64,000 nucleotides of DNA from Candidatus Omnitrophota bacterium (GTDB taxonomy: Bacteria > Omnitrophota > Gorgyraeia > Gygaellales > Profunditerraquicolaceae): positions 275,696-339,695 of the forward strand of contig CAWDSS010000010.1 in assembly GCA_963805065.1 (NCBI GenBank), read 5' to 3'. The notes below the pieces were generated by a model, which did no database searches, was not told the origin of the DNA, and worked only from the letters and a program-made list of their open reading frames with translations. The position numbers and the translations under genes were made by a program. Shown here in pieces: positions 3,366 through 47,263 of this stretch; positions within the stretch are counted from its first letter, which is position 1; each line of letters opens with the position of its first letter.

Positions 3366-3870
3366 ATAACTCGCCCTCTAAGTAAAATTCTATCTTCTCT
3401 ATATAATAGACTGCCTTATATTTTTTACCAAGAGGAGACTTGTATTTAAATTCTTTAGAATTCTTAAATAAGAAAATCTGTTGCTTAAAAGTCAGTATTG
3501 CATTCTCTAAATTACTCACTACGGCCTCGTTACCCTGAATTTCTGCTATTTTTAAAAGATAGACAAGAGCAAATAATTTGGATTTAGAATCCGGGTAATC
3601 ATTGATTAATTTAACGAATGCGTCATTCGCACCACGATAATTTTCAGTATCAAAGTAATATTCTCCTGTTGCAAATAATGCATCCGGCTTATATTTTGAT
3701 TCGGCAGAATTAGCCACAATCGACTGAAAATTCATAAATGCAGAAATAAAATCTCCGGATTTTGCCGCATTGATTCCTTCGTAATATATCTGCTTATCTT
3801 CCTGTGCATATACTGTAATGCCAGATAGAAGAATCAGAAAAAAAATGATACTTACTCTTTTAAATATCAT
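3346..3870 (-). CDS. secreted TPR-like repeat protein
   Basis: 174 aa. It has a signal peptide (IIFFLILLSGITVYAQ) and TPR-like helical repeats of the YbgF/BamD type (GDFISAFMNFQSIV, YKPDALFATGEYYF, GANDAFVKLINDYP). Confidence 0.5.
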   Translation of the reverse strand: MIFKRVSIIFFLILLSGITVYAQEDKQIYYEGINAAKSGDFISAFMNFQSIVANSAESKYKPDALFATGEYYFDTENYRGANDAFVKLINDYPDSKSKLFALVYLLKIAEIQGNEAVVSNLENAILTFKQQIFLFKNSKEFKYKSPLGKKYKAVYYIEKIEFYLEGELFAQISY

Positions 3871-3913
3871 CTAAACGCTCCTTTAGGTTGGCAATTTCTC
3901 ATCGCCGTTCTTG

Positions 3914-4133
3914 CTTTCATTAGTATGGCTATGGAGGCACCAAAACACATTGTTTGCAATCGAAGATTCCAAATCACATTGATTTGGAATAGATTCTGCG
4001 CCACATTGGTGTTAAGATACCAAAACACATTGTTTTGGTATCTCCGTTATCTTTCATTAATGCAGCTATGGAGGCACCAAAATACATTATTTTGGTGCCG
4101 TAGCCTTTTTTCATTAATGAAAAAAGGCTACGG
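3914..4133 (-). repeat. tandem hairpin-repeat array 1 plus tRNA trailer hairpin (downstream of tRNA-Ser GGA)
   Basis: The palindromic units are 3941-3956 (degenerate), 3966-3990 (ATTCCAAATCACATTGATTTGGAAT), 4016-4042 (GATACCAAAACACATTGTTTTGGTATC) and 4073-4099 (GGCACCAAAATACATTATTTTGGTGCC). A degenerate ATTAAT hairpin lies at 4041-4072, and the perfect trailer palindrome is at 4098-4133. Confidence 0.85.
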
Positions 4134-4215
4134 AGAGGCAGGGATTTGAACCCTGGGACCCTTGCGAGTCATACGCTCTCCAAGCGTACGCATTCAACCG
4201 CTCTGCCACCTCTCC
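4131..4215 (-). tRNA. tRNA-Ser (anticodon GGA)
   Basis: The reverse complement reads GGAGAGG TG GCAGAGCGGTTGAATGC G TACGC TTGGAGA GCGTA, then a long variable arm, then CAGGG TTCAAAT CCCTG CCTCTCC G. It folds as a class II cloverleaf by hand. No CCA is encoded. Confidence 0.85.
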
Positions 4216-4637
4216 AAAAAATTTTAATGTAAAATTTTTTGGATTCTGTAGGCAATGCTTAGATTAATCTAAGCATTGCCGCAAGAATCTCCAAAGTCGT
4301 TCGCTATTGCTTAATCAATACTTATCAGTAAACAAATAACAGTTGTTGCTTTATTTATTACGTAGCTTTATATTTTAGGACGCTCACTCCTCATAGGGGA
4401 AACCCGTTTGGTTTCCCCTGATGACGCTCTCCGCCAGCTGTTAGCTTTGGTCGCTGTCACCCCTTCCTTCGCAATTTAGAGAAACATCCTTAAGGGGAAA
4501 ACAATCTTTTCCCCTTAATAATCCCTTTTTTAGGTTTTTAACAACAGAACTTAAAACCACTTCTATTGTCCTGCTTCGCAGGATAGTTGTTAAAAACCTT
4601 TGTCGTTCGCTTGAGCTTTGTTTGTCAGATTACCAGA

Positions 4638-4753
4638 TCCTGAAATACATTATTTCAGGACTAAGATACCAAAACACATTGTTTTGGGACAAAGAAGCCA
4701 AAATACATTATTTTGGCTTCTCCGTGATTTTTCATTAATGAAAAATCACGGAG
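4638..4753 (-). repeat. tandem hairpin-repeat array 2 plus tRNA trailer hairpin (downstream of tRNA-Ser CGA)
   Basis: The units are 4638-4660 (TCCTGAAATACATTATTTCAGGA), 4669-4687 (CCAAAACACATTGTTTTGG) and 4694-4720 (GAAGCCAAAATACATTATTTTGGCTTC). The trailer palindrome is at 4720-4753 (CTCCGTGATTTTTCATTAATGAAAAATCACGGAG). Confidence 0.85.
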
Positions 4754-4835
4754 AGTGGAGGATTTGAACCTCCGGTCACCTTACGGCGACAACGGTTTTC
4801 GAAACCGCCGCATTCAACCGCTCTGCCAACTCTCC
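4749..4835 (-). tRNA. tRNA-Ser (anticodon CGA)
   Basis: The reverse complement reads GGAGAGT TG GCAGAGCGGTTGAATGC G GCGGT TTCGAAA ACCGT, then a long variable arm, then GGAGG TTCAAAT CCTCC ACTCTCC G. No CCA is encoded. Confidence 0.85.
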
Positions 4836-4869
4836 AGATTTATGAATACATACACGACTTTATCTGAAC

Positions 4870-5151
4870 TCAGCCTCTGAATACCAGTAAAAAAACTACT
4901 GAAGAAATAATACAGATTAATCCGACAATAACCCTTTTCTTTAATAGGCTTTCCTGAAAAGTATAAATCGTAGTCTCTAACTTAGGGATCATTATTTTTT
5001 TTAACCCAAAAATTTCTTTACCTAAAATACCTTCTAGTCTTCTGTATTTGTACTCGGCAATTAACAATAATACTCCCACTACAAAAACCACGGGGCTGAC
5101 GAATAATAACGCACTTTTCATGATATCGAAAATCGTTAATTCCGGAGCCAT
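4870..5151 (-). CDS. small membrane protein, two predicted TM helices, unknown function
   Basis: 93-aa ORF with hydrophobic segments ALLFVSPVVFVVGVLLLIA and VIVGLICIISSVVFLLVF. It lies between two tRNA-Ser genes. Confidence 0.45.
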   Translation of the reverse strand: MAPELTIFDIMKSALLFVSPVVFVVGVLLLIAEYKYRRLEGILGKEIFGLKKIMIPKLETTIYTFQESLLKKRVIVGLICIISSVVFLLVFRG

Positions 5152-5192
5152 TCTATACCTCCTTGCTTTGCTTGCGGATTAAAAGGTATCGA

Positions 5193-5350
5193 GGCACTGA
5201 AATACATTATTTCAGTTACGCAATAGGCACCAAAATACATTATTTTGGGTCTCAATAGGTACTAAAATATATTATTTTGGGCAACGATAGGCACTGAAAC
5301 ACATTGTTTCAGTGCCACCGCTTAGCTTCATTAATGAAGCTAAGCGGTGG
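5193..5350 (-). repeat. tandem hairpin-repeat array 3 plus tRNA trailer hairpin (downstream of tRNA-Ser TGA)
   Basis: Four units with a 32-33-nt period start at 5193, 5226, 5258 and 5290. One example is GGCACTGAAACACATTGTTTCAGTGCC at 5290-5316. The trailer palindrome is at 5315-5350 (CCACCGCTTAGCTTCATTAATGAAGCTAAGCGGTGG). Confidence 0.85.
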
Positions 5351-5433
5351 GGGTGAGATTTGAACTCACGGAGGGGAGAAATCCCCTCAACAGTTTTCAA
5401 GACTGCCGCTTTCAACCGCTCAGCCACCCCACC
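5345..5433 (-). tRNA. tRNA-Ser (anticodon TGA)
   Basis: The reverse complement reads GGTGGGG TG GCTGAGCGGTTGAAAGC G GCAGT CTTGAAA ACTGT, then a long variable arm, then GTGAG TTCAAAT CTCAC CCCCACC G. No CCA is encoded. Confidence 0.85.
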
Positions 5434-5543
5434 TATCCTGTTTTTCCCGCATCTATGAATTTTATTGTCGGGCGGGATCCCGCCTGTGATTTAATAGCCG
5501 AGCGGGACAAGACAAGCCCATTCGACCACTCTGGCACCCCACC
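5434..5543 (-). pseudogene. tRNA-like 5' half (class II, Ser-like) interrupted by a 63-nt twin-hairpin module and truncated after the anticodon stem
   Basis: The minus strand reads GGTGGGG TG CCA GAGTGGTCGAA TGG G CTTGT CTTG, then [TCCCGC-N18-GCGGGA][TCCCGC-N21-GCGGGA], then AAA ACAGG ATA, after which tRNA-Ser(TGA) begins. The variable arm, T arm and 3' acceptor strand are absent. Confidence 0.55.
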
Positions 5544-5551
5544 AGAACTAA

Positions 5552-6238
5552 TTATAAGAAAAGCTGTTTAAACACAGCATAAAATATACTCTCAGCCGAA
5601 AGGAATGCGCTGTTGAAGAAATTAACAAAGGAGAACTGTTTAAAAATGAAACTAAGGCTTAGGGAAAGCAGGATTAAATTGACTATAAAAATAAAAGAAA
5701 ACCCGAAAATGTAATTTGCTTTCAGGAAATCATTTTGTTTTGTCCGCACTGACTTTGCGCTGAATACCAAATGTAATGCCACACTGAAACTAAAAATAAA
5801 CAAGAAAAAATAAAAGAAATCTTTGGATTTAAAAATTAAAGAAAGCGGTAAGTACAAAATAAATACAATAATCGCATAGACCGGCAATACGAACGGCGCC
5901 ACCTTTACCAGAGGAGAAAAGAAACTGAATATAACCTCAAGCAGCCTGTGGCCTTTACGATAAATCGCTGCCGGTTCAAACACAAACAAATGTATGAGAA
6001 GAAAAGTTATTATGCCTGCCCAAAAATAACTTTGCGACGGTAAATCTATCAGCCCTAATTCTTTTAAAAATGATACCGATATCGAATATACGAACGGCAA
6101 AAGGCAAACCCCTAAGACAAATTTTATGATTCCAAACAACTTATCGGAAATTCCCGATATTCTGGAACGAGCACCCTCTAAAATCCTGGGACCCTCTTTT
6201 TTAGGAAGTTCTTTCTTAGGAAATTCTTTCTTTTCCAT
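5552..6238 (-). CDS. polytopic membrane protein, unknown function
   Basis: 228 aa. A lysine-rich N-terminus (KKEFPKKELPKKEGP) is followed by about 6 hydrophobic helices. The gene overlaps the serS 3' end by 23 nt. Confidence 0.5.
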   Translation of the reverse strand: MEKKEFPKKELPKKEGPRILEGARSRISGISDKLFGIIKFVLGVCLLPFVYSISVSFLKELGLIDLPSQSYFWAGIITFLLIHLFVFEPAAIYRKGHRLLEVIFSFFSPLVKVAPFVLPVYAIIVFILYLPLSLIFKSKDFFYFFLFIFSFSVALHLVFSAKSVRTKQNDFLKANYIFGFSFIFIVNLILLSLSLSFIFKQFSFVNFFNSAFLSAESIFYAVFKQLFL

Positions 6239-7484
6239 CTAAATATGTCCTTAAGACTTGCGGTATTATTACCGAGCCGTCTTTTTGTTGGTAGTTCTCA
6301 ATTATCGCTATCACTGTGCGCGCCAAAGCAATGCCTGAACCGTTGAGGGTATGTACAAAATCGATTTTCTTCGTGCCTTTTCTTCTGAATCTTATATTTG
6401 CCCTGCGTGCCTGGAAACCCTCAAAATTTGAACAACTGGATACTTCCAGCCACTTGTCCACTCCTGCGGCATATGCTTCAAGGTCATAGCATTTGCTTGC
6501 GGAAAAACTCAGATCTTCTGTAGATAACATTACTACCCGGTAAGGTAAACCCAATAATTGAAGTACCTCCTCTGCATCCTTGACTAATTTTTCCAACTCA
6601 TCATAAGAAGTCTCAGGCTTAACAAATTTAACCATTTCCACTTTATCAAACTGATGCACGCGCATAAGGCCTTTGGTATCTTTGCCGTATGAACCTGCCT
6701 CTCTTCTAAAGCATGCGGTATAAGCAGTATAATAAATAGGCAAGCTATCTTCGTCTAAAACTTCGTCCCGAAAGATATTTGTTACCGGCACTTCTGCGGT
6801 AGGAATTAAAAATAAATCGTCATCTTTTAAGCGGTACATATCTTCTTCCAGCTTGGGAAGCTGGCCTGTGCCGGTCATGGAAGCCCTGTTTACCAGAAAA
6901 GGTGGAAAAACTTCAGTATAGCCGTGTTTTTTGGTATGCAAGTCAAGCATGAAGTTTAATAATGCTCTTTCAAGTTTTGCACCCCAGCCTTTATAAAGAA
7001 TAAAATTTGAACCCGTGATTTTTGCCGCGCGGTTAAAATCAATTATATCCAGATGCTGGCTAAGTTCTATATGGCTAAGCGGCTGGTAATCAAATTTTGG
7101 CAAATCGCCCCACGAGCGCACAGTTTCTTTTTTTGAATGATCTCCGATAGGAATGGTTGAATCTGGTACATTAGGAATAGTTAACAATATTTTATCTAAC
7201 TCGGTTTCTGCTTGTTTTAATTTGTCTTCCAGTTGATCTATTTTATTTGAAATCTCCTTCATTGAGTAAATTTTTGCTTTTGCATCTTTTTTCTCTTTTA
7301 ATAGGCCGGTGATTTCATCGTTTGCCTTGTTCCTTTTTGCCCTTAACTCTTCCAATTCAACCAGGGCCTGCCTTCGCGCATCATCAACTTTCAACAAGGC
7401 AGATAAATCTAGCTTGAGATTACGGTTGTTCAAAGACTGCTTTACTAAATCCTGATTTTCGCGAATGAATTTTATGTCTAACAT
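6216..7484 (-). CDS. serS: seryl-tRNA synthetase
   Basis: 422 aa. It has an N-terminal coiled-coil tRNA-binding arm (MLDIKFIRENQDLV...) and class II core motifs (FRREAGSYGKDTKGLMRVHQF, TLNGSGIALARTV). Confidence 0.95.
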   Translation of the reverse strand: MLDIKFIRENQDLVKQSLNNRNLKLDLSALLKVDDARRQALVELEELRAKRNKANDEITGLLKEKKDAKAKIYSMKEISNKIDQLEDKLKQAETELDKILLTIPNVPDSTIPIGDHSKKETVRSWGDLPKFDYQPLSHIELSQHLDIIDFNRAAKITGSNFILYKGWGAKLERALLNFMLDLHTKKHGYTEVFPPFLVNRASMTGTGQLPKLEEDMYRLKDDDLFLIPTAEVPVTNIFRDEVLDEDSLPIYYTAYTACFRREAGSYGKDTKGLMRVHQFDKVEMVKFVKPETSYDELEKLVKDAEEVLQLLGLPYRVVMLSTEDLSFSASKCYDLEAYAAGVDKWLEVSSCSNFEGFQARRANIRFRRKGTKKIDFVHTLNGSGIALARTVIAIIENYQQKDGSVIIPQVLRTYLDGKERIS

Positions 7485-7485
7485 T

Positions 7486-8946
7486 TTATCCTTTTATTAC
7501 TCCTAATGGTCGCATCCTGCAGACGCGCTTGGAAATACCCACATTATGCACTACATCCACCACATCATTAATATCTTTATAAGCCTGGGGAGCCTCTTCT
7601 ACAATAGTGCCTCTGCCCGACGCTTTAACAATTATACCCTTAGATTCCAATTCTTTCAACAACATATTCAAGTCAATAGACTTAGTGGCAGATGTGCGCG
7701 ATTTTAGTCTTCCTGCGCCATGACAGGTAGAATAAAAGGTTTCTTCGGCTTTTGCAGTACCTACCAACAGATAGGAATTTCTTCCCATATCTCCGGGTAT
7801 AATCACAGGCTGGCCTGTTTTTTTATACCTCTGTGGCAATGCAGGATGCCCCGGGCCAAAAGCTCGCGTTGCTCCTTTTCTATGCACGCACAGCGATTTC
7901 TCCTTGCCATCAATTTTATATTTTTCAATTTTCGCAATATTATGTGCTACATCATAAATCAGAAACATTCCCAATTTCTGCCACGACGCTCCAAAAATAC
8001 GCTCAAAAGATTTACGCGTAAGATGCATCAGGCACTGACGGTTATTCCAGGCATAATTAGCAGCGCACTTCATAGCTGCCAAATATTGTTTACCTTCGGC
8101 AGAATTTACCGGAGCGCAGGCAAGCTGCCTGTCAGGTACATTGATATTGTATTTCTGAAGGCAATGAACCATGTTCTTTACATATTCATCGCATATCTGA
8201 TAGCCGAAACCCCGCGAGCCGGAATGGATCATCACTGTAACCTGGCCTAGATTAAGCCCGAATTCATCACAACAATCCCTATCGTAAAGTTGATCGATGA
8301 CTTGAACCTCAAGAAAATGATTTCCCGAACCCAGGGTCCCTGATTGCGCCTTTCCCCTTTCATAAGCCCTGTCTGAAACAGCATCGGGATCAGCGCCTTG
8401 TATTGCGCCATTTTCTTCAGTGCATTCCAAATCTTCCTGTGTCCCGTAACCTTTTTCTACCGCCCACTGAGAGCCTTTTACCAGAATTTCTTTTTCTTCT
8501 CTTGCGCTGACCCTGATATCGCCTTTTGAACCCACGCCAGAAGGCACATCAGAAAACAATGCATAAACTAAATCTTTGATTTTATCCTTTATTTCATCAT
8601 ACTGAAAATTAGTTTTTAATAATCTAATGCCGCAATTTATGTCATAGCCGACGCCTCCGGGAGAAATCACTCCGCCGTTTTCAATATCAGTCGCAGCTAC
8701 CCCTCCTATCGGAAAACCATAGCCCCAATGTATATCAGGCATGGCTAACGACGCATTTACAATTCCCGGTAAAAATGCCACATTAGCCACCTGCTGGGCT
8801 GCTTTGTCGTTACGGATATCCTTTAATAATTTCTCGTCTGCATAGATTATCCCCGGAACACGCATACCAGGCTGGTATGACTTAGGTATGCGCCAGCGAT
8901 AATCATCAATTTTCTCTAAAGGTCCATTCCAAACCTCAGACATCAA
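7486..8946 (-). CDS. rtcB: RNA 3'-phosphate/5'-OH ligase RtcB
   Basis: 486 aa with RtcB signature segments: GYDINCG, GSGNHFLEVQ, HSGSRGFG, CHGAGR and PLGVIKG at the C-terminus. Confidence 0.93.
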   Translation of the reverse strand: MMSEVWNGPLEKIDDYRWRIPKSYQPGMRVPGIIYADEKLLKDIRNDKAAQQVANVAFLPGIVNASLAMPDIHWGYGFPIGGVAATDIENGGVISPGGVGYDINCGIRLLKTNFQYDEIKDKIKDLVYALFSDVPSGVGSKGDIRVSAREEKEILVKGSQWAVEKGYGTQEDLECTEENGAIQGADPDAVSDRAYERGKAQSGTLGSGNHFLEVQVIDQLYDRDCCDEFGLNLGQVTVMIHSGSRGFGYQICDEYVKNMVHCLQKYNINVPDRQLACAPVNSAEGKQYLAAMKCAANYAWNNRQCLMHLTRKSFERIFGASWQKLGMFLIYDVAHNIAKIEKYKIDGKEKSLCVHRKGATRAFGPGHPALPQRYKKTGQPVIIPGDMGRNSYLLVGTAKAEETFYSTCHGAGRLKSRTSATKSIDLNMLLKELESKGIIVKASGRGTIVEEAPQAYKDINDVVDVVHNVGISKRVCRMRPLGVIKG

Positions 8947-9352
8947 AAATCACCTCTGCCATCCAGCCGGAATCCGACTGTTCCAATTTCAATTCATGAT
9001 AAGTAGCTGCCTTTATCTCGGTATTTACTTTATAATTTTTCATGTCGCTGCCTGCAACAACAGCCTCCAGGCTATGCTTATCTATTTTGTTTATCTTAAA
9101 ATCGCAAAATATCAGCGCCTTGGCAGCGGATAAAGACAATAATTCATTCAGCCAATTAACAAAAAGCTCATCAATATTATCCGCGCTCTGCTTAATTTGG
9201 ATTTGGTTGACTTTCTTAGCGCAATGCCCTGATTCTTCAGCCATAATGTCAAACATCGCGCGGGCAGTTTTTCGAAATAATTCTTCCAGGCTAGCCGCTG
9301 TTATTTTGACGCCTACGTCTGCGGTATGCTCGATCAGCTCATAATCCTTCAT
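8936..9352 (-). CDS. archease (RtcB activator family)
   Basis: The ORF track starts at 9373, but that ATG lies inside the tRNA-Lys acceptor stem/CCA. The second Met (MKDYELIEHTADVGVKI...) gives the canonical archease N-terminus. The gene overlaps the rtcB start by 11 nt. Confidence 0.8.
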   Translation of the reverse strand: MKDYELIEHTADVGVKITAASLEELFRKTARAMFDIMAEESGHCAKKVNQIQIKQSADNIDELFVNWLNELLSLSAAKALIFCDFKINKIDKHSLEAVVAGSDMKNYKVNTEIKAATYHELKLEQSDSGWMAEVIFDV

Positions 9353-9362
9353 GGGAGGGAAA

Positions 9363-9438
9363 TGGTGGGCCATGTAGGAGTCGGACCTACGACCTTGACA
9401 TTAAGAGTGTCCTGCTCTGCCAATTGAGCTAATGGCCC
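9363..9438 (-). tRNA. tRNA-Lys (anticodon CTT), CCA encoded
   Basis: The reverse complement reads GGGCCAT TA GCTC AATTGGCA GAGC A GGACA CTCTTAA TGTCA AGGTC GTAGG TCCGACT CCTAC ATGGCCC A CCA. It has an unusual C at T-loop position 55. Confidence 0.75.
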
Positions 9439-9640
9439 TAAAATCTAGGTTTTTATACCAGCCATTAGCGAAATGCCCGCTAGGGTATGAGCTAATGGCC
9501 CTGATTATTTGTTAGTGTAGTAAAGAGTATATCTTAGATAAAAAACTAAATCAAGGAAATTGTTACACAGAAATAGCTAGTGTCCAAATATTATCCATAT
9601 ATAACTACGCTGCTCGTTGTAAACAGATAAAATCTAGTTA

Positions 9641-9676
9641 CAAACAAAAAGGGCTGAACGGTTAAGTCCAGCCCTG
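9641..9676 (-). terminator. rho-independent terminator (shared islet terminator family, copy 1)
   Basis: The minus strand reads AGGGCTGGACTTAACCGTTCAGCCCT followed by TTTTTGTTTG. It lies 44 nt downstream of the 9720 stop. Confidence 0.65.
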
Positions 9677-9719
9677 GGAGAGTAAATGGTGCTTCTTATT
9701 TTCTGATTTAATTTAGTCT

Positions 9720-10031
9720 TTATTTTTTCACAGCTTGAGGCACTACAATGGTTGGCAGTTGAACAACCCCATTGGTTTTGGCCTTAGTGTCATTCAGTGC
9801 TTTCTTTGTGGTATCAAGCTCTGCTTTAACGCTGTTCAACTCAACTTGTTTTGTCCTTATTTCTTTAGTAAGTTTGGTTATCTGGGTATAATCTCGTTGA
9901 ATTATAGCGTTCAATGTATTAATTTGGTTTATCATCTGCTTTGCATTTTTATAATTTTGATAAGTAATACCGGCGGCGATAACTAAAACTACTAAGCCTA
10001 TGCCAATAACTATGTTCTCTTTCTTTGCCAT
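9720..10031 (-). CDS. membrane-anchored coiled-coil protein (paralog of 11853..12167)
   Basis: The start is moved to MAKKENIV, which is preceded by AAGGAGGGAGC. A TM helix (IVIGIGLVVLVIAAGI) is followed by a heptad-rich region (ELNSVKAELDTTKKALNDTKAK). Confidence 0.55.
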   Translation of the reverse strand: MAKKENIVIGIGLVVLVIAAGITYQNYKNAKQMINQINTLNAIIQRDYTQITKLTKEIRTKQVELNSVKAELDTTKKALNDTKAKTNGVVQLPTIVVPQAVKK

Positions 10032-10147
10032 GCTCCCTCCTTTTTTATTATTATAACACTCCTGTTCCAAAATGGTAGGGGATTTTTATAAACAAAAATG
10101 ACTGAACAGTTAAGTCCAGCCCTTAATTATTTGTATCTTGGTTAACT

Positions 10148-10849
10148 TTACCTGCAAGTCATCTTACTCGCATCGCCATCTTCGCTTATAAACCAACTAG
10201 ATTGCCCACCATTCTCTCTTGCCTCAGAACAAAAACCTCCTTTATCATCAGTAAAAACACAATATTTCCAATGCTCCGAGGAAAGTTTCAGACTTAGCTT
10301 ACTATTACAATCTTCCGTAGAATCACAACTTATATAATTATTTTTATCCGACCGTAACATTTTTTCTGCTAGTTGTATTGTTTTTAAACTTGCTTTTGCT
10401 TCCAAGTTTATTAGCTGCTCTTCATTAATCTTGTGATTCTTAATAAAAGACATGAGTTTTTCCGCCTTTTGATAATCTCCTGCCTTATTATATAACTCTA
10501 TCGCCTGTTGCATATTTTCTTGCCCGTCTTTCTCTCTGCCTGTCAAAAAATACGCAGTACCTATAAGGCTATAAGCTAAGGGGTCTTTAGGATTTGATTG
10601 AATAGCTTTTTGGAATTGCTCAATTGCTTCTGGGTATTGTCCACTCTTAAAATATTCAGTTCCTTTATTAAGATACAAGTTAGTTTCGGTATTATCTGAT
10701 GAAGGAATAGTTCTTTGAGATAAGGCTGATTTAGAAAACAAGGTGGTTAAAAATAATCCAACAAATATTGTTGTTATTGTAAGCACAAGTAATATATTCT
10801 TCATTATTTTAGTGTTTGGTCTCCTGTGAGTATTTATACTACTTAACAT
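10148..10849 (-). CDS. signal-anchored TPR protein with Cys-rich pilin-like C-terminal domain
   Basis: 233 aa. It has an N-terminal hydrophobic anchor and TPR repeats (YLNKGTEYFKSGQYPEAIEQFQKAIQSNPKDPLAY...). The C-terminal segment EAKASLKTIQLAEKMLRSDKNNYISC...C...C...C resembles a pilin/pseudopilin head. The start is uncertain (10849 or 10804). Confidence 0.5.
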   Translation of the reverse strand: MLSSINTHRRPNTKIMKNILLVLTITTIFVGLFLTTLFSKSALSQRTIPSSDNTETNLYLNKGTEYFKSGQYPEAIEQFQKAIQSNPKDPLAYSLIGTAYFLTGREKDGQENMQQAIELYNKAGDYQKAEKLMSFIKNHKINEEQLINLEAKASLKTIQLAEKMLRSDKNNYISCDSTEDCNSKLSLKLSSEHWKYCVFTDDKGGFCSEARENGGQSSWFISEDGDASKMTCR

Positions 10850-10867
10850 ACATAGAGAGTCACCTTA

Positions 10868-11002
10868 TTAATCCTCTTCTATCTCAAAGCGACAGCCGCA
10901 TACATTACACTCATAAACTGACATTTCTTCATGAGGCTCAACAAATCTTGTGTCTGTGCTGTTACATTTAGGACATTCAACGGGCGGATTCCATTCAGGC
11001 AT
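10868..11002 (-). CDS. 44-aa zinc-ribbon protein (CPKC...CNVCGC)
   Basis: Hand-translated as MPEWNPPVECPKCNSTDTRFVEPHEEMSVYECNVCGCRFEIEED, below the ORF-track size cutoff. It carries two CxxC-type knuckles and lies downstream of the ferritin-like gene. Confidence 0.45.
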   Translation of the reverse strand: MPEWNPPVECPKCNSTDTRFVEPHEEMSVYECNVCGCRFEIEED

Positions 11003-11099
11003 CGTCTTTCATCCCCAAGTAACTATTAATTGTTTTTATGTCTGTGGGTTTCTATTGGCCTTTAGCAAAATTTCTAATGCCTATCAAATCATTCTAAAA

Positions 11100-11600
11100 C
11101 TATTTCCAGTTATTAATCAAGAGACAGAGTAATCTTGCTCCCTCATCTTCATGAAAAAATTTATCTTCTTCTTGAAAATGCCTTTCTTTATCTAATGCCG
11201 ACCAATGTTTTCTTTCATCCCTAATTATATCATCATAAACTTTGCGAAAGCCTCTATCTTTTTTCTTTGCTTCTTCGTAAAACTCTATTGCTTGTCTTTC
11301 CGATTCCTTAGCAATTTTTAAAGCACCAATTAAGGAAAAACTGGAAACTTTAATGTTAGTATCTAACTTGCTTAAGTCTGCGACATAGGATTCCCCGGTC
11401 ATTGATTTCAATCTCTCATTTAAAAGCTCTTTATGTCTTTGTGCTTCTTCCTTACCAAATTTCATAAACATTTGCCTTATTCTGCCGTTTCTTATCTTCT
11501 GGGCAATATACATATAAAAATCGCCTGCTGCCTGTTCTGCTATTATGGACTCCTGTAGCATGTTTACAAACTGCTCTTCTCTTTTGCTTAATCTTTTCAT
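11100..11600 (-). CDS. ferritin-like diiron-domain protein (rubrerythrin family, no rubredoxin domain)
   Basis: The start is moved to MKRLSKREEQ, which is preceded by AAAGGAGAGG. It has paired ExxH-type helices (GKEEAQRHKELL, IIRDERKHWSAL) and the EQAAGDFY / ESERQAIEFY glutamates. Confidence 0.6.
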   Translation of the reverse strand: MKRLSKREEQFVNMLQESIIAEQAAGDFYMYIAQKIRNGRIRQMFMKFGKEEAQRHKELLNERLKSMTGESYVADLSKLDTNIKVSSFSLIGALKIAKESERQAIEFYEEAKKKDRGFRKVYDDIIRDERKHWSALDKERHFQEEDKFFHEDEGARLLCLLINNWK

Positions 11601-11763
11601 TTTTGCCTCTCCTTTTAACAAAAAAAGCAACCCACTATTTAGAGAGTTGCCTTATAAATTTAGCCTGCTTCTGCCTTCATGTACACCTCATTGCAACATA
11701 GGCATATTATACTACTTTCTAGGTATCATTTAAGCATTTTCTCGGTCTTTATGGCATAGAGCG

Positions 11764-12522: not shown

Positions 12523-12653
12523 TGCGCCTGGCAGGAGTTGAACCTGCAACGCCTAGCTCCGAAGGCTAGCGCTCTATCCAGTTGTCCCGCTATATCATTT
12601 AGTTCCGCTAGCGGGATCCCGCCTGCTATGGAATAGCTTGGCGGGAAGCTACA
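12523..12653 (-). pseudogene. tRNA-Arg-like gene (anticodon TCG) interrupted in the D arm by a 62-nt twin-hairpin module, with a decayed 5' acceptor strand
   Basis: The minus strand reads ..TG TA GCT, then [TCCCGCC-N16-GGCGGGA][TCCCGCTA-N16-TAGCGGGA], then C AACTGGATA GAGC G CTAGC CTTCGGA GCTAG GCGTT GCAGG TTCAACT CCTGC CAGGCGC A. The 7 nt that should pair with CAGGCGC read TTGAATG, giving only 4 of 7 pairs. Confidence 0.55.
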
Positions 12654-12660
12654 TTCAAAA

Positions 12661-12733
12661 CGCGCCCGAGTGGAGTCGAACCACCAATAGCCAGTTCCGA
12701 AGACTGGTGCCTTATCCATTAGGCCACGGGCGC
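12661..12733 (-). tRNA. tRNA-Arg (anticodon TCG)
   Basis: The reverse complement reads GCGCCCG TG GCCT AATGGATA AGGC A CCAGT CTTCGGA ACTGG CTATT GGTGG TTCGACT CCACT CGGGCGC G. Confidence 0.85.
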
Positions 12734-12734
12734 A

Positions 12735-13454
12735 TCAAATTATCTCGCACCTTTCCCCCAATATTTCTTTGATTTTCTTAAGCTTACCTTTATCTACCGG
12801 TAATATCCCCTCTTCTGCAGTAGAGCGCACAGGAGAATTCAGCTGGATTTTATCGGGATTTATCTCATCAATTACTGCTTTTAATTTCTTTATCTGCCTT
12901 AAATCATCATTCATCCCTTTAACCAGCATTACTTCCAGCCAGATTTTACCGCGGTATTCTTTTCTTAAAGCAATCAAACCGTTTATTATCGCTTCTAACT
13001 TTATATCCGGATGAGGCCGCTCAATCTTTACAAAGATTTCAGGAGTTACGGCATCTAAAGATGGAACTATAATATCAGAAGATAAAATATCTTTTCTTAC
13101 GGCAGGGTCACCTAACAACGAAGAATTGGTAATAACGACTATGGGTAAATTAGTCAGGGATTTGACTTTCTCTATCAATTCAGCGATTTTACTATTCAGC
13201 GTAGGCTCGCCGGAACCTGAGAGGGTAATATAATTTATTTTTTGTGTATCCGCGGGGTTATTTTCCATCCACCACTTTAACTCCCCCAATATATCCGAAA
13301 TCGAGACATACTCTTTTCTTTCACACAGCGGGTTAGAGGTTTTACCCAACTGGCAGTAAACGCAGTTAAAATTGCATACCTTGGGTGGAGTGAGAGTAAT
13401 CCCCAGAGAAAACCTTAGCCTTCTTGATTTAACCGGCCCATATATGTATTTCAT
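12735..13454 (-). CDS. radical SAM protein
   Basis: 239 aa. The N-terminus is YGPVKSRRLRFSLGI, followed by the CNFNCVYCQ cluster motif and GSGEPTL. Confidence 0.85.
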   Translation of the reverse strand: MKYIYGPVKSRRLRFSLGITLTPPKVCNFNCVYCQLGKTSNPLCERKEYVSISDILGELKWWMENNPADTQKINYITLSGSGEPTLNSKIAELIEKVKSLTNLPIVVITNSSLLGDPAVRKDILSSDIIVPSLDAVTPEIFVKIERPHPDIKLEAIINGLIALRKEYRGKIWLEVMLVKGMNDDLRQIKKLKAVIDEINPDKIQLNSPVRSTAEEGILPVDKGKLKKIKEILGERCEII

Positions 13455-13470
13455 AGCTTATATTATACCA

Positions 13471-13522
13471 CAAAAAAATCCCCGTCTCCTGAAAGTATTA
13501 ACTTCCTCTAAAAGACGGGGAT
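13471..13522 (-). terminator. rho-independent terminator after the CBM48 gene
   Basis: The minus strand has a 10-bp stem, ATCCCCGTCT...AGACGGGGAT, followed by TTTTTTTG. TGGTATAAT follows immediately, ending 7 nt before the radical-SAM ATG. Confidence 0.65.
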
Positions 13523-13539
13523 TATACCTTTAAATTATC

Positions 13540-13815
13540 TTATTTAACTTCTACTATGCAGTTCTGTGAGCCAAACGAATTAGTAACGCAAGAAGAACAA
13601 CGGGGATCATTAAGCCATGAGCCGTCGACAAAAAACTTATATTCGTGCCTACCCGGCTTTAGATTTACCTTTACTACCCAGTTTCCCTTTGAATCTTTTT
13701 TTGCTGAAAGTTTCTTGGGGTCCCAGTTATTAAAACTACCGGCAAGACTGACCCGTTTTGCCTGCGGCGCATAAAACTTAAACTGCATTGTTTTAGCTCT
13801 GGTTGTCGTAGCCAT
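13540..13815 (-). CDS. glycogen-binding CBM48 (AMPK-beta/isoamylase N-terminal type) domain protein
   Basis: The start is moved to MATTTRAK, preceded by AAGGAGGTAGTT. The sequence FKFYAPQAKRVSLAGSFNNWD...GNWVVKVNLKPGRHEYKFFVDGSW is a typical CBM48 fold sequence. Confidence 0.75.
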   Translation of the reverse strand: MATTTRAKTMQFKFYAPQAKRVSLAGSFNNWDPKKLSAKKDSKGNWVVKVNLKPGRHEYKFFVDGSWLNDPRCSSCVTNSFGSQNCIVEVK

Positions 13816-13874
13816 AACTACCTCCTTTGTCAAACTTAATTTATACACAAAACTAAGGGTAATGTCAAGGGTTT

Positions 13875-14687
13875 TTATACCGCAACTATCGCAAGCCTTT
13901 TTTTGTTCGCCAACTTCAGGCTTTGTTCTTTATCTATGAAAAGGGTTTTGCCCGCTTCAATTGCCAGGCAAGCGGCATCCGTCTTAATCAGGTTCTTCAC
14001 CGTGTTTAATCCTACTACCGGTATATCAAACCTCAAGTCCTGCATAGGCTTACTTACCTTCACTACAGTGGCACCGCCTCCGGTAATTCTTCCCGCACGC
14101 TTGATAAGATTATCGGTTCCTTCCAAAGCCTCAACCGCAACTATTGCCTTATCCTTCACTGCTACGGTCTGGCCTATATCCAAATAAGCTATTGCCTTTG
14201 CCAGATGCAGGCCGAAATAAATGTCTTCCCAAAGCGAAAAATCAGGCGCATGTTTAGTAAGAGAGCATTTTTCAGGCATGTAATCCTCCAGAAATGTTGT
14301 AGAGCTTAACAACTCCACGCCTGATTCACTTAATTTTTGAGCTATTGCCCCGAATATTGTATCTGCTTTCTTGTCTTTTATGCCTTCTAATAATTTCTTC
14401 AAGCCGGCATCTTTTGTAATTTCCCCGCTAAACAGCCTTCGCGGGCTGATTTGCCCGGCCATAATTACTTTGGAAATTCCCTCTTTCTTAAAAATCTCAA
14501 ACATGCGGCTGAATTCGCTAAGCCCCAGCCAGTATATTTTATCTACTTTCTTTTTTAATTGCGGGGAGGTGTCGCCTTTTACAGCAACCGCAACAATAGC
14601 GTAGCCTTTCTTCTTAGCTGCGCTTGCGACTAAAAGGGGGAATTTTCTATTGCCTGCAATCAAACCTATTTTATCCATATAAGCCAT
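13875..14687 (-). CDS. lpxI: UDP-2,3-diacylglucosamine pyrophosphatase LpxI (DUF1009 family)
   Basis: 270 aa with IGLIAGNRKFPLLVA, DIGQTVAVKDKAIVAVEALEGTDNLIKRAG and VVKVSKPMQDLRFDIPVVG. It lies directly downstream of lpxA. Confidence 0.8.
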   Translation of the reverse strand: MAYMDKIGLIAGNRKFPLLVASAAKKKGYAIVAVAVKGDTSPQLKKKVDKIYWLGLSEFSRMFEIFKKEGISKVIMAGQISPRRLFSGEITKDAGLKKLLEGIKDKKADTIFGAIAQKLSESGVELLSSTTFLEDYMPEKCSLTKHAPDFSLWEDIYFGLHLAKAIAYLDIGQTVAVKDKAIVAVEALEGTDNLIKRAGRITGGGATVVKVSKPMQDLRFDIPVVGLNTVKNLIKTDAACLAIEAGKTLFIDKEQSLKLANKKRLAIVAV

Positions 14688-15472: not shown

Positions 15473-16789
15473 TTATTCCTCTACCAGCGCAAACATGAAT
15501 TCCGCTTCTGCAACTACTTTTCCGTCGACAAGCGCTTTTGCAAATACCTGGCCGGTCCTGGATTTTATCTTGCCGGCAACCACATCAAGCACCAACTGGT
15601 CTCCTGGTAGGACTGTCTTTCTAAACTTTATATCTTTGGCTGACAGGAAGAATGCAAGTTTTCCCCTGTTCTCCTGCGGGGCTAACATCATAATACCTCC
15701 TACCTGAGCCATGGCTTCCACAATAATTACTCCCGGCATAACAGGCCTGCCCGGGAAATGCCCCTTAAAGAAATAGTCATTTATGGTTACGTTCTTTATG
15801 CCGGTGGCATGCTTTCCCATCTCCAAATGAATAATCCTGTCCACAAACAAAAACGGCTCGCGATGCGGCAGGATTTTCATAATGGTCGTTACGTCCAATT
15901 CCTGGCCGTGTTCCAGATGAAAACCCGCACCTATCCCTCCGGAAAAAGACCTTTCCTTTTGGACAGCAATCTTATTGGTTAGTTTTAGATTAAGAGAATG
16001 GCCGCTCCTTAATGCAATAATATGGGCTTTTAAAGGACTTCCTACCAAATATAAATCTCCTATCAAATCCAGCATCTTATGACGGACAAATTCATTTTCA
16101 AAACGCAATTTATTCTTGATTACTCCATTTTTGCCTACAACTAATGTATTTTCATAATTTGCTCCCAGGCCCATCCCACCACGCTGTAACTCATTGGCTT
16201 CCTCTTCAAGGCAAAATGTCCTGGCAGGCGATAACTCTGATTTGAAGACTTCAGGGTTTAAGTTAACTTCTAAGAAATCTTTTTTCAGGAATGCATGATT
16301 GTAACTTAAAGTGTAGGAAATCCTGAACTCATTAGAGGGCAAGGCAACAATGGATGCGTCCTCTTCTTCCACAAATATAGGCTCTCTTATGGAATAATAC
16401 TGCCGTTCTTTTTCCTGCTCAACAATGCCTGCCCGGGCAAACATCTCGGAAAAATTATTACTGCTTCCGTCCATGCCGGGAATTTCATTGTTATCGATGT
16501 CAATACAAATATTATCGATGCCTGCCCCGCATAAAGCTGCCATAAGATGTTCTATGGTTTGTACTTCAGCCCCGTCACGGCCTATGGATGTACGGCGCAA
16601 AGAATGTTCCGGAGACAAAAGGTTATTAGCCGAGGCTTTTATTATGGGCTTGCCCGGTAAATCCACGCGGATAAAATTAATGCCACTATTGGGCTCTGCC
16701 GGCTTAAATGTAATATTAACCTTATTTGCGGTATGTAAGCCTGTGCCTTTTAAACTAAATTCTTTGGCAATTGTTTTCTGTTTATCCAT
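15473..16789 (-). CDS. lpxC/fabZ: bifunctional UDP-3-O-acyl-GlcNAc deacetylase / 3-hydroxyacyl-ACP dehydratase (LpxC-FabZ fusion)
   Basis: 438 aa. The N-terminal ~285 aa are LpxC-like (TLKGTGLHTANKV, TIEHLMAAL, HKMLDLIGDL). The C-terminal ~140 aa are a FabZ hot-dog domain (LPHREPFLFVDRI, FFKGHFPGRPVMPGV). Confidence 0.9.
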   Translation of the reverse strand: MDKQKTIAKEFSLKGTGLHTANKVNITFKPAEPNSGINFIRVDLPGKPIIKASANNLLSPEHSLRRTSIGRDGAEVQTIEHLMAALCGAGIDNICIDIDNNEIPGMDGSSNNFSEMFARAGIVEQEKERQYYSIREPIFVEEEDASIVALPSNEFRISYTLSYNHAFLKKDFLEVNLNPEVFKSELSPARTFCLEEEANELQRGGMGLGANYENTLVVGKNGVIKNKLRFENEFVRHKMLDLIGDLYLVGSPLKAHIIALRSGHSLNLKLTNKIAVQKERSFSGGIGAGFHLEHGQELDVTTIMKILPHREPFLFVDRIIHLEMGKHATGIKNVTINDYFFKGHFPGRPVMPGVIIVEAMAQVGGIMMLAPQENRGKLAFFLSAKDIKFRKTVLPGDQLVLDVVAGKIKSRTGQVFAKALVDGKVVAEAEFMFALVEE

Positions 16790-27538: not shown

Positions 27539-27931
27539 TTAAACAGTAATTCCCTTTGCCTTTTCCTGTTCGTAACCCTCTAGAACTTTCTTTTGCAAAT
27601 ATTCCCTGAAGGACTGTGTTATGGGATGGGCAATGTCTTTGTGCTCTAATTGAGCTGTGCTTTGCGCTTCGGGAGTAGCCGGCTTAACTGTCATAGGCAG
27701 CGAAGAGCCGCACTGGTTACAATATTTGCTGCGCATTTCATTCTTAAAACCGCACTTTGGACACGGCTGCTTTATCTTCCTTGAAGGCATGGCAATAAAT
27801 AAACCGCTTGTGCCTTCTATGACTTTTATATTCCTGACCACGAAAGCATTATCCAAGGTTACCGTGGCATATGCCTTTAATTTTTTATCGGGAGAGTCTT
27901 TTAAAACCACCTTAACCTCTGTTATCTCCAT
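27539..27931 (-). CDS. spoVG: SpoVG-family protein with internal zinc-ribbon insertion
   Basis: 130 aa. The SpoVG core is MEITEVKVVLK...AYATVTLDNAFVVRNIKVIEG..GLFIAMPSRK...DIAHPI. It is interrupted by CPKCGFKNEMRSKYCNQCGSSL plus a ~25-aa linker. Confidence 0.8.
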   Translation of the reverse strand: MEITEVKVVLKDSPDKKLKAYATVTLDNAFVVRNIKVIEGTSGLFIAMPSRKIKQPCPKCGFKNEMRSKYCNQCGSSLPMTVKPATPEAQSTAQLEHKDIAHPITQSFREYLQKKVLEGYEQEKAKGITV

Positions 27932-46288: not shown

Positions 46289-47263
46289 CTAAATGTAGGA
46301 TTTATACATAGGTTCGCTTCTTATAAATTGGCGATCTTTTGAAATTATAACCTCTTGAAATGAATAACTTTTTTCCTCGTGTGTTTCTAGTAATAGCTTT
46401 ATTTTGATATCTTTTTTAAAACTCAAAGTGATATGATCAAAAACTGTTGGAGAATTTGGATATAAAGGTCTCCGAAGAAGCTCAAACTGAAAAGCTTTTA
46501 TGCAATTAGAATTTATACTGGTAACATCAGTACTCTTTTCACTTTTAATGATTACATTTGAATCTTGACCTTCATGAAGTCTAAAGGTTAAAATTGAAGT
46601 TAAATGAGTTCCGGGTTTATTACCAAAATTATTGTAAACAACTCTTAACTTACCCTCTATAGAATCTTCTTTTTCCTCCCAAGTTTCTGGTTCTAGATTA
46701 ATGTTAATCCGAGGTATTATTTTTTCCTCAATCAGCTTCAAAGTTTCAACAAAAGGGATTTGTGTAGTCTCATCTCCTATCCTACGATAAGCGCGATCTT
46801 CTAATCTTGAGAAATAAACAACATTCAAATCTATTGGATGAATTTCTATAATAAAAATGTTTTCTTTCTTTTGGATTTCGATCTTCTCAATTTCAACTGA
46901 TGGGAAAGTAGAATAAAGAGGAATAGAAGTCAAATTGGCTATTATCCATTTTCTTATTTGATCATCATCTTTAATCAATTCTTCCTTGATGGGGATAATA
47001 TCTATGGGAAATCCATCTTTTTCACTCAACCCCAAAAATAAGACGCCTCCTTCTGAAATAAATTTATTGAGGAACCCAACTAAGGGCTTGATGATTATTT
47101 GTTTAGAATGGTCATCACGTATTGATATATTCTTAAATGTTTTACATTCAAATATCGTTGATTCTTTATATTTGCAATCTATTATATTATTTTTTATATC
47201 TACTTTATTAATATTATTCTCTTTTCCAAATATATCTTTCATTAATCTTCTTGAATTCATCAT
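46289..47263 (-). CDS. AlbA_2 (Schlafen-like divergent-AAA/DNA-binding) domain protein with unknown C-terminal domain
   Basis: 324 aa and very AT-rich. The N-terminal half fits the AlbA_2 pattern (ESTIFECKTFKN...LVGFLNKFISEGGVLFLGLSEKDG...IFIIEIHPIDLNVVYFS..DRAYRRIGDETTQIP). The C-terminal ~140 aa are unassigned. Confidence 0.55.
   Translation of the reverse strand: MMNSRRLMKDIFGKENNINKVDIKNNIIDCKYKESTIFECKTFKNISIRDDHSKQIIIKPLVGFLNKFISEGGVLFLGLSEKDGFPIDIIPIKEELIKDDDQIRKWIIANLTSIPLYSTFPSVEIEKIEIQKKENIFIIEIHPIDLNVVYFSRLEDRAYRRIGDETTQIPFVETLKLIEEKIIPRININLEPETWEEKEDSIEGKLRVVYNNFGNKPGTHLTSILTFRLHEGQDSNVIIKSEKSTDVTSINSNCIKAFQFELLRRPLYPNSPTVFDHITLSFKKDIKIKLLLETHEEKSYSFQEVIISKDRQFIRSEPMYKSYI

Follow-up and report, generated by a model that had tools for sequence, protein, structure and literature searches.

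The archease–rtcB locus and its proteins

We analyzed a 64,000-nucleotide (nt) stretch of DNA from a Candidatus Omnitrophota bacterium (contig CAWDSS010000010.1, positions 275,696 to 339,695; hereafter the window), in which the genes for archease and the RNA ligase RtcB lie among tRNA genes and the gene for seryl-tRNA synthetase (SerRS, serS). Along the minus strand, the locus comprises tRNA-Lys(CTT), archease, rtcB, serS, the gene for a membrane protein (TM228), a tRNA-Ser fragment, tRNA-Ser(TGA), the gene for a 93-amino-acid (aa) membrane protein, tRNA-Ser(CGA), and tRNA-Ser(GGA) (Table 1). A first-pass annotation, made from the sequence, had listed this co-oriented order, and every feature was found in its place on the minus strand. 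The four tRNAs of the region give full-length Rfam matches of 56–64 bits, and ARAGORN called the same genes. With tRNA-Arg(TCG) and tRNA-Gln(TTG), they make up the six tRNAs of the window, all complete canonical genes. The three tRNA-Ser genes are of the ordinary class II type with long variable arms and have no introns.

The genes from tRNA-Lys to TM228 are closely packed. Between the CCA end of tRNA-Lys and the archease ATG lie 10 nt (TTTCCCTCCC), the 3' end of archease overlaps the start of rtcB by about 8–11 nt (8936–8946), the rtcB stop codon is 1 nt from the serS start, and the end of serS overlaps TM228 by 23 nt. The archease start was placed at ATG 9352, which is backed by the alignment with Pyrococcus horikoshii archease and by the relatives. 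ATG 9373, from which the archease open reading frame (ORF) had first been printed, overlaps tRNA-Lys and was rejected, homology favoring ATG 9352. Since tRNA-Lys and archease leave no space for a promoter between them and each of the four ORFs overlaps or adjoins the next, the spacing indicates that tRNA-Lys(CTT), archease, rtcB, serS, and TM228 probably form a single transcription unit with its promoter upstream of tRNA-Lys, which is probably the first gene of the unit. The overlapping and abutting ORFs also suggest translational coupling. A terminator-like hairpin (9650–9675) is located 3' of the gene upstream of the unit, and a second one (5563–5578) lies within the final codons of TM228.

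Enzymes of the RtcB family join RNA 3'-phosphate or 2',3'-cyclic phosphate ends to 5'-OH ends in a GTP- and Mn-dependent manner, and archease activates the guanylylation and turnover of RtcB. Residues 52–486 of the RtcB studied here cover positions 1–426 of the 426 in the PF01139 model, and 478 residues align with P. horikoshii RtcB (575 bits). The motifs GYDINCG, GSGNHFLE, HSGSRGFG, DVAHNI, and STCHGAGR are all identical to those of P. horikoshii, as are the aligned counterparts of Asp95, Cys98, Asn202/His203, His234, His329, and His404, which we take to be the metal-binding and guanylylation residues. The scores against Thermus thermophilus RtcB and human RTCB are 547 bits and about 472–479 bits, respectively. 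The best NCBIfam model is that of the intein-containing RtcB family (732 bits, under that model's cutoff), and the Escherichia coli-type model scores 182 bits vs its cutoff of 407. Since the former fits best and the latter poorly, RtcB is, as judged by its sequence, a member of the Pyrococcus/Thermus/human subfamily. Archease residues 11–145 cover positions 1–136 of the 136 in PF01951, and the alignment with P. horikoshii archease (4n2p; 1.3e-20) includes the EHTAD and KAATYH motifs. The acidic N-terminal metal site and the conserved C-terminal Lys are both present; the match to NCBIfam PRK00407 (7.9e-30, 103.8 bits) is under the curated cutoff of 126. From what is established for the family, RtcB, activated by archease, is predicted to join 3'-phosphate or 2',3'-cyclic phosphate ends to 5'-OH ends.

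The pairing of archease with rtcB is not new, since such operons have already been described in diverse bacteria, namely Pelobacter, Synechococcus, Syntrophus, and Thermus, and T. thermophilus RtcB requires archease for multiple turnover (PMC3973293, PMC4604427). The first-pass remark that an archease partner is unusual for rtcB in bacteria is therefore overstated, although archease is indeed uncommon in bacteria. As in the published "tRNA splicing operon" (Desai et al. 2014, PMC3973293; 2015, PMC4604427), archease immediately precedes a co-oriented rtcB and the two ORFs overlap, the similarity of RtcB extends over its full length with all catalytic motifs, and the archease metal-site motif is present. 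Unlike that operon, the block in the window runs on directly into serS and the gene for an Omnitrophota membrane protein, seems to be fused to the tRNA-Lys gene before it, and has three tRNA-Ser genes after it; the published partner, a tRNA m5C methyltransferase, is absent. The rtcBA–RtcR system of E. coli and Salmonella shares the RtcB-family ligase, for which a role in repairing tRNA or rRNA damage is assumed there. However, the E. coli system has no archease, and no RtcA, RtcR/sigma-54 activator, or Rsr/Y RNA was found in the 64 kb. That rtcA and rtcR are missing here had been stated before and was borne out by Pfam, which detected neither domain among the 68 ORFs of the window. A literature search on RtcB in Omnitrophota found no paper. 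We consider the locus a lineage-specific member of a known system in an unusual neighborhood, where translation of the pair seems to be coupled to that of SerRS and a membrane protein and its transcript probably includes tRNA-Lys.

TM228 seems to belong to this lineage. Every one of its 880 homologues that carries a source name is assigned to Omnitrophota or Omnitrophica, and the protein has no match in Pfam, NCBIfam, or PADLOC. Its AlphaFold model consists of six helices with a predicted local distance difference test (pLDDT) score of 75.6, and comparison of the model with the PDB gave no fold match (best E 0.25). The 93-aa membrane protein has a homologue at the same place in one related locus (L002), and similar-sized ORFs occupy this place in two others (L020 and L024).

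Table 1 Features of the locus and of the surrounding DNA. Positions are those of the window unless a related locus (L number) is named.
Feature	Position	Strand	Details
Partial copy of tRNA-Lys	9460-9501	minus	copy of nt 1-14, GGGCCATTAGCTCA, at 9488-9501 and GCTAATGGCT at 9460-9469; the two pair as a hairpin
tRNA-Lys(CTT), intact, CCA encoded	9363-9438	minus	ARAGORN; Rfam 63.8 bits
archease, 138 aa	8936-9352	minus	Pfam PF01951, 4.9e-37
rtcB, without intein	7486-8946	minus	Pfam PF01139, 8.7e-177
serS, seryl-tRNA synthetase	6216-7484	minus	Pfam Seryl_tRNA_N and tRNA-synt_2b
TM228, six-helix membrane protein	5552-6238	minus	no Pfam match
Dead copy of a tRNA-Ser(TGA) variant	5437-5543	minus	nt 1-36 at 5508-5543; doublet at 5445-5507; AAAACAGG at 5437-5444
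tRNA-Ser(TGA), intact, CCA not encoded	5344-5433	minus	ARAGORN, Rfam
Palindrome and hairpins at tRNA-Ser(TGA)	5193-5350		palindrome with the last 7 nt of the ARAGORN call (5315-5350); four tandem CCAAAAYAATGTRTTTTGG-family hairpins
Small two-helix membrane protein, 93 aa	4870-5151	minus	no Pfam match
tRNA-Ser(CGA), intact	4748-4836	minus	ARAGORN, Rfam
Palindrome and hairpins at tRNA-Ser(CGA)	4640-4754		palindrome with the tRNA 3' end (4719-4754); three tandem CCAAAAYAATGTRTTTTGG-family hairpins
Structured non-coding insertion, ~306 nt	4306-4611		direct repeat GTCGTTCGCT (10 nt) at 4296-4305 and 4602-4611
tRNA-Ser(GGA), intact	4130-4216	minus	ARAGORN, Rfam
Palindrome and hairpins at tRNA-Ser(GGA)	3933-4133		palindrome with the tRNA 3' end (4098-4133); four CCAAAAYAATGTRTTTTGG-family hairpins
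tRNA-Arg(TCG) pair	12523-12734	minus	intact divergent gene 12660-12734; ancestral remnant 12523-12584 and 12647-12653
Doublet copies	5445-5507; 12585-12646		
rtcB insertion in relatives	L007 2244-3775; L010 923-2328; L012 194-1614; L020 2757-5750		
Split genes (acetolactate synthase, ilvD, bamA)	54337-55882; 55984-57599; 18489-20949		

Gene order in related Omnitrophota

Related loci were collected in two ways. A scan of a genome collection with RtcB gave 13 Omnitrophota loci with 63–87% RtcB identity, and look-ups of TM228 homologues added L018, L020, L022, L023, and L024, bringing the sample to 18 distinct loci, whose content was read by tblastn and ARAGORN. The sample thus represents one phylum and was retrieved with genes of the block, rtcB or TM228, as queries. 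In the genome collection, the nearest loci all come from Omnitrophota assemblies or from assemblies labelled "Planctomycetales".

The order archease–rtcB–serS–TM228 is complete in 13 loci (L001–L005, L007, L008, L010, L011, L018, L020, L022, and L024), and the five truncated loci are all compatible with it, leaving no counter-example among the 18. Archease and rtcB are adjacent and co-oriented in all 15 related loci that include their junction. At the site upstream of archease, which 14 loci cover, 13 have tRNA-Lys directly before the gene, this being tRNA-Lys(TTT) in L008, and L022 has two inserted genes. Downstream of TM228, tRNA-Ser(TGA) follows within a few hundred nt in 12 of 14 loci. The clustering of three Ser isoacceptors with serS, already noted in the first-pass annotation, was confirmed, and the order TGA, CGA, GGA is preserved among the relatives. 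That annotation had also named, first among the conditions that would refute a dedicated tRNA module, an arrangement conserved in no relative; since the order recurs in 18 related loci, this objection fails.

The same neighborhood was read in locus L018, where four tRNA-Ser isoacceptors (TGA, CGA, GGA, and GCT) follow serS (7684–11731) and a tadA-like deaminase gene adjoins tRNA-Arg(ACG), its substrate if the deaminase is TadA. Such a layout could stem from a tendency of genes for tRNA enzymes to stay near the tRNAs on which these enzymes act.

We consider it reasonably probable that the block is a lineage-specific housekeeping operon of Omnitrophota, in which a generic RNA repair ligase is co-expressed with translation genes. 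The five genes from tRNA-Lys to TM228 would be transcribed as one unit, from which tRNA-Lys would be cut out; sharing the unit with SerRS and tRNA genes would co-express the ligase with the translation apparatus, and RtcB would act as a general repair ligase on tRNA, rRNA, or mRNA.

The conservation could also be a frozen accident: a single acquisition of the RtcB pair, perhaps from archaea, would have placed it by chance next to serS in the ancestor of the clade, and the pair would now serve substrates other than the neighboring tRNAs or be nearly dispensable. Consistent with this idea, the nearest RtcB matches outside Omnitrophota, four with 49–52% identity, come from three DPANN archaea and one Chlorobiales, and archease is found nearby in three of these four distant loci, among them the archaeal ones, but serS in none. 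In addition, rtcB contains an intein in L007, L010, L012, and L020, and therefore mobile DNA has visited this gene; E. coli can do without its rtcB in rich medium (PMC4604427). On the other hand, lineages up to 37% apart in RtcB have kept the overlaps between start and stop codons, while the flanks up- and downstream of the block have been repeatedly rearranged and invaded. Since the overlaps were kept while the flanks changed, the block seems to be held together by selection on co-expression rather than by inertia, and we regard an accident as rather unlikely. As for the rtcB interruption itself, it follows approximately residue 78 in several relatives and is ~1.5 kb long; the one in L020, within a 997-aa product, has an intein annotation (Pfam Intein_splicing).

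The invaded flanks include the tRNA-Ser cluster. The spacers between its genes vary among the relatives and carry different cargo: a radical-SAM/SPASM gene and a LAGLIDADG_3 gene in L018 (the latter at 9444–10445, 7.5e-11), a GIY-YIG gene in L013 (3492–3755, 4.8e-17), a PLD-like gene in L022, and, in both L024 and L020, an element resembling a plasmid or phage. Directly downstream of tRNA-Ser(GGA), genes with Replic_Relax, HTH_17, and Imm_superinfect domains were seen in L024 (7740–12800), and genes with HTH_36 and ParB-methylase domains in L020 (9850–14711). Because these mobile-element genes lie next to tRNA-Ser(GGA), the tRNA-Ser cluster looks like an integration hot spot. The homing-endonuclease-type genes of L018 and L013 adjoin both tRNA-Ser genes and 5' tRNA fragments, which suggests that they are tRNA-gene replacement cassettes. 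In L008, the position of the homing gene is taken by a 213-aa ORF (13430–14071) with no significant Pfam match.

Partial tRNA copies and a dispersed palindromic doublet

Besides the intact genes, the window contains three partial tRNA copies (Table 1), two of which are split at a loop by a palindromic doublet. In the tRNA-Ser copy, a 63-nt insert interrupts the anticodon after its second base; another 8 nt of tRNA sequence (AAAACAGG) follow the insert, and the copy ends 3 nt before the intact gene. The 36 nt at 5508–5543 are identical at 35 positions to the functional tRNA-Ser(TGA) of L010 and not to the window's own version, and L010 reciprocally has a fragment of the window's version at the same place. 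The fragment is missing from L001, L002, L004, L005, L011, and L024. It could in principle represent tRNA-Sec, an intron-bearing tRNA, or a split tRNA, all of which we rejected: it has no Rfam match at E<=10, it folds no better than shuffled sequence (z = -0.7), and the window contains no 3' half that would match it.

The tRNA-Arg(TCG) remnant, which lies outside the range of the first-pass annotation, has lost its first 5 nt and consists of nt 6–12 and nt 13–76 on either side of the doublet; its Rfam score of 24.4 bits is below threshold. In L002 and L018 the functional gene is of this ancestral version, and in the window a divergent intact copy lies immediately upstream of it. The copy of the tRNA-Lys 5' end, with which no palindromic doublet is associated, lies 21 nt upstream of the real tRNA-Lys, and the same architecture is seen in L003 and L020. 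Partial copies beside intact genes are common in the relatives (Arg in L005, Lys in L008, Ser in L013), and their presence and length differ among loci. In L005 (3333–3691), a 41-nt copy of the 5' half precedes tRNA-Arg(TCG), and two 90-nt tandem units follow it, each ending in the 3' 34–40 nt of the gene. Candidate origins for these copies are tandem duplication with insertion and trimming, att-type recombination at attachment sites, and replacement cassettes of homing endonucleases. Only 50–150 nt lie between the direct repeats of tRNA segments, and no integrase was seen with them.

Each insert of the window consists of two abutting TCCCGC-N(18–21)-GCGGGA units, which amounts to four units vs 0.01 expected. 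The exact pattern (TCCCGC-N14-24-GCGGGA)x2 was found in at least 120 metagenome contigs (L025–L144). Among the matches listed, to which the following counts refer, several contigs represent the same Omnitrophota loci, such as radical SAM–tRNA-Arg and tRNA-Gln–glmU. A tRNA gene is found no more than 150 nt away from 29 of the 120 doublets, approximately five times as often as the 6.0 ± 2.2 obtained when positions are drawn at random (1000 trials, highest count 15). A copy of a segment of the neighboring tRNA is found near 11 of the 29, mostly abutting the doublet. The splits fall after nt 55/56 in the T loop (Pro, Lys, Thr, Arg, Met), at 35/36 in the anticodon loop (Glu, Ser), and at 12/13 in the D loop (Gln, Arg). 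Within the T-loop consensus we found 16 of 116 doublets, vs 0.4% of controls, and 21% are placed in hairpin loops (hairpins of 5 bp or more), vs 7% in controls. In every locus read in detail, the doublet-split partial copy stands beside an intact gene for the same tRNA.

These positions might suggest that RtcB and archease are retained for interrupted or split tRNA genes, with the doublet as an intron or the fragments as halves, in the manner of archaeal splicing. The RtcB is of the archaeal/eukaryal splicing-ligase type, its closest matches outside Omnitrophota include DPANN archaea at ~50% identity, and the doublet sits exactly in tRNA loops. Compared with splicing by EndA, RtcB, and archease in archaea and metazoans, including the split tRNAs of Nanoarchaeum, the window has the same ligase subfamily and cofactor; however, it has neither an intron-containing or split tRNA gene nor an EndA domain, and its fragments stand beside intact genes. 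The doublet was also tried as an intron by in-silico excision with 0–2 nt of play per side followed by ARAGORN, and none of the 139 instances among the matches listed yielded a tRNA. Since excision never gives a tRNA, the interrupted copies are relics and not intron-bearing genes. Every interrupted copy examined is partial while the six tRNAs of the window are complete, and the tRNA-Ser fragment is absent from the six loci named above. We regard a splicing function as very improbable.

The first-pass annotation had counted two tRNA-like genes carrying insertions as an argument for a repair module. Fragments with inserts do exist, but they are partial copies next to intact genes; because the pieces are scars, the argument from interrupted tRNAs fails. 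The tRNA-like fragments are scars or relics, not substrates of the ligase.

No mobility gene was seen near the doublet. The 148 ORFs within 2.5 kb of doublets, among the matches listed, belong to housekeeping families, and no integrase, transposase, or REP-associated tyrosine transposase (RAYT; REP, repetitive extragenic palindrome) recurs as a family among them. Y1 transposases are absent from the Pfam families with at least three of the 148 ORFs, although a single copy could escape this count. No doublet copy was found in viral contigs. The doublet resembles REP elements and bacterial interspersed mosaic elements (BIMEs), of which REP dimers insert within other palindromes (Di Nocera et al. 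2013, PMC3733652): it likewise consists of 30–33-nt palindromes arranged as abutting dimers and is multi-copy, intergenic, and often inside the loop of a pre-existing hairpin. Unlike REP/BIME, it has no GTAG or CGTC tag, starting with TCCCGC and ending with GCGGGA, and no RAYT was seen nearby. Its preference for tRNA loops and its association with partial tRNA copies also set it apart, and no such description was found in the publications consulted.

Two further systems leave comparable traces. Integrase-mediated insertion at the anticodon or T loop, reportedly described by Williams in 2002, leaves partial tRNA copies, and E. coli tyrT has 3' repeat units. The likeness is that an intact gene is accompanied by direct repeats of part of the tRNA, which extend from one of its loops to the end of the gene, as in L005. 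Unlike integrase scars, the repeats here are separated by the short distances given above with no integrase nearby, and the partial copy is itself split by the doublet. The second system is T4 SegB, reported as a homing-endonuclease gene in a tRNA cluster (PMC13096335). The LAGLIDADG gene of L018 and the GIY-YIG gene of L013, located by tRNA-Ser genes and tRNA fragments, are similar, whereas the window has no homing-endonuclease gene. The doublet accounts for "half tRNAs" that annotation could mistake for split genes, and it may be a useful case of structure-targeted insertion. It is the most unexpected find of this study, yet peripheral to the question of archease and rtcB.

The 3' ends of the tRNA-Ser genes carry a different set of repeats. 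Each tRNA-Ser of the window is followed by an 18-bp perfect palindrome centered on TTCATTAATGAA that takes in the last 4–7 nt of the tRNA as called by ARAGORN, and its sequence shifts from tRNA to tRNA such that the pairing with the tRNA end is kept. Such palindromes were found at 11 tRNAs in the window, L002, L003, L018, and L024. They measure 14–18 bp and include the last 3–9 nt of the tRNA across the window, L024 (6820–7560), L002 (6340–6406), and L018, where they follow four tRNA-Ser genes. Tandem CCAAAAYAATGTRTTTTGG hairpins accompany the palindromes, two to four each; their 11 copies all lie in 3940–5310, vs 2.65 expected in the whole window, and hairpins of this family also occur in L024 and L002. 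Termination, transcript processing, and a role as a DNA-level palindrome are candidate functions. In viral contigs, the CCAAAAYAATGTRTTTTGG family gave four isolated matches, which is about chance by a rough estimate without a computed expectation.

The ~306-nt insertion between tRNA-Ser(CGA) and tRNA-Ser(GGA) is missing from L024. The region 4217–4640 (424 nt) folds stably (z = -7.6), and the insertion has no Rfam match and no ORF longer than 39 aa. A decayed homing-endonuclease or cargo gene at 4217–4640 was considered, and tblastn with eight ORFs from the equivalent positions of relatives found nothing. A search of the hairpin-rich region 3800–9800 against Rfam at E<=10 for non-coding RNAs or ribozymes gave only chance-level matches.

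Possible substrates of the ligase and the surrounding window

The first-pass annotation had found the layout consistent with a dedicated tRNA repair or maturation module and had noted that Lys and Ser tRNAs are frequent targets of anticodon nucleases. On this view, the pair would be devoted to repairing tRNA-Lys and the class II tRNA-Ser beside it, re-sealing them after cuts by an anticodon nuclease that is either a toxin of the cell itself or comes from a phage or competitor. The tight, conserved arrangement stands: the adjacency to tRNA-Lys and three Ser isoacceptors persists in the relatives (13 of 14 loci for Lys, 12 of 14 for Ser(TGA)), the spacing suggests co-transcription with tRNA-Lys, and the serS and deaminase layouts of L018 fit the idea. 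To look for partners, the 68 ORFs of the window were scanned with Pfam and 10 uncharacterised ORFs with PADLOC. Against the proposal, the ORFs contain no PrrC/RloC, VapC/PIN, HEPN, or colicin-type domain and no EndA, Pnkp, Hen1, RtcA, or toxin by Pfam, and PADLOC found nothing relevant. The tRNA adjoining archease is tRNA-Lys(CTT), whereas the classical target of PrrC is tRNA-Lys(UUU).

One window protein of 324 aa (46289–47263) has a Schlafen/AlbA_2 domain (1.5e-11) and is the sole window ORF with even a distant tie to tRNA-cleaving proteins; mammalian proteins with this domain cleave class II tRNAs. This protein would speak for the module, but it is encoded 37 kb from the locus and has no match in NCBIfam or PADLOC. 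Since the fragments are not substrates and no nuclease partner was found in the 64 kb, what is left in favor of a dedicated module is adjacency, which inherited synteny or co-expression explains equally well; in a synteny sample drawn from a single phylum with rtcB or TM228 as bait, inheritance alone can account for it. We regard such a module as unlikely.

We prefer the housekeeping operon with a generic ligase, against which several points weigh. The adjacency to tRNA-Lys and tRNA-Ser genes over a wide range of identity could mean a specific link between enzyme and substrate, and in L018 both the deaminase gene beside tRNA-Arg(ACG) and the four Ser isoacceptors after serS point in the same direction. 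The promoter scan was at chance level (15 sites vs 15.1 expected), and the probable co-transcription is read from the spacing of the genes. The inspection for nucleases covered 64 kb, and the longest contig of this genome measures ~1.19 Mb. Furthermore, to our knowledge the physiological substrate of bacterial archease-dependent RtcB has not been established in the field.

A bolder interpretation of the same layout is that genes for tRNA enzymes are deliberately kept by their tRNAs and that archease–RtcB, fused to tRNA-Lys(CTT), is a constitutive, substrate-linked repair ligase for tRNA-Lys and tRNA-Ser against some nuclease. We think this a doubtful conjecture, and a variant in which the loop-targeting doublet and the ligase are functionally connected is more speculative. 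A clade in which the pair is invariantly embedded among serS and tRNA genes is a place to seek the substrate of archease-dependent RtcB in bacteria, which are not known to have protein-spliced tRNA introns.

Outside the locus, the window consists of core housekeeping genes, and the locus is not in a mobile or defence island. The window encodes cell-envelope functions (lpxI, lpxA, lpxC-fabZ, lpxD, ompH, and bamA), core functions (dnaB, L9, ssb, S6, pth, L25, prs, glmU, spoVG, and ispE), and transketolase, hisG, pyruvate:ferredoxin oxidoreductase (PFOR), a ttcA-like gene, ilv/leu genes, pfk, ahcY, and metK. The acetolactate synthase large subunit is divided among three ORFs (TPP N, M, and C domains), ilvD between two overlapping ORFs, and bamA between two; these splits are frameshifts, pseudogenes, or assembly errors. 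SpoVG (27539–27931) has a zinc-ribbon insert at residues 57–80, and LpxC and FabZ are fused into one protein (15473–16789).

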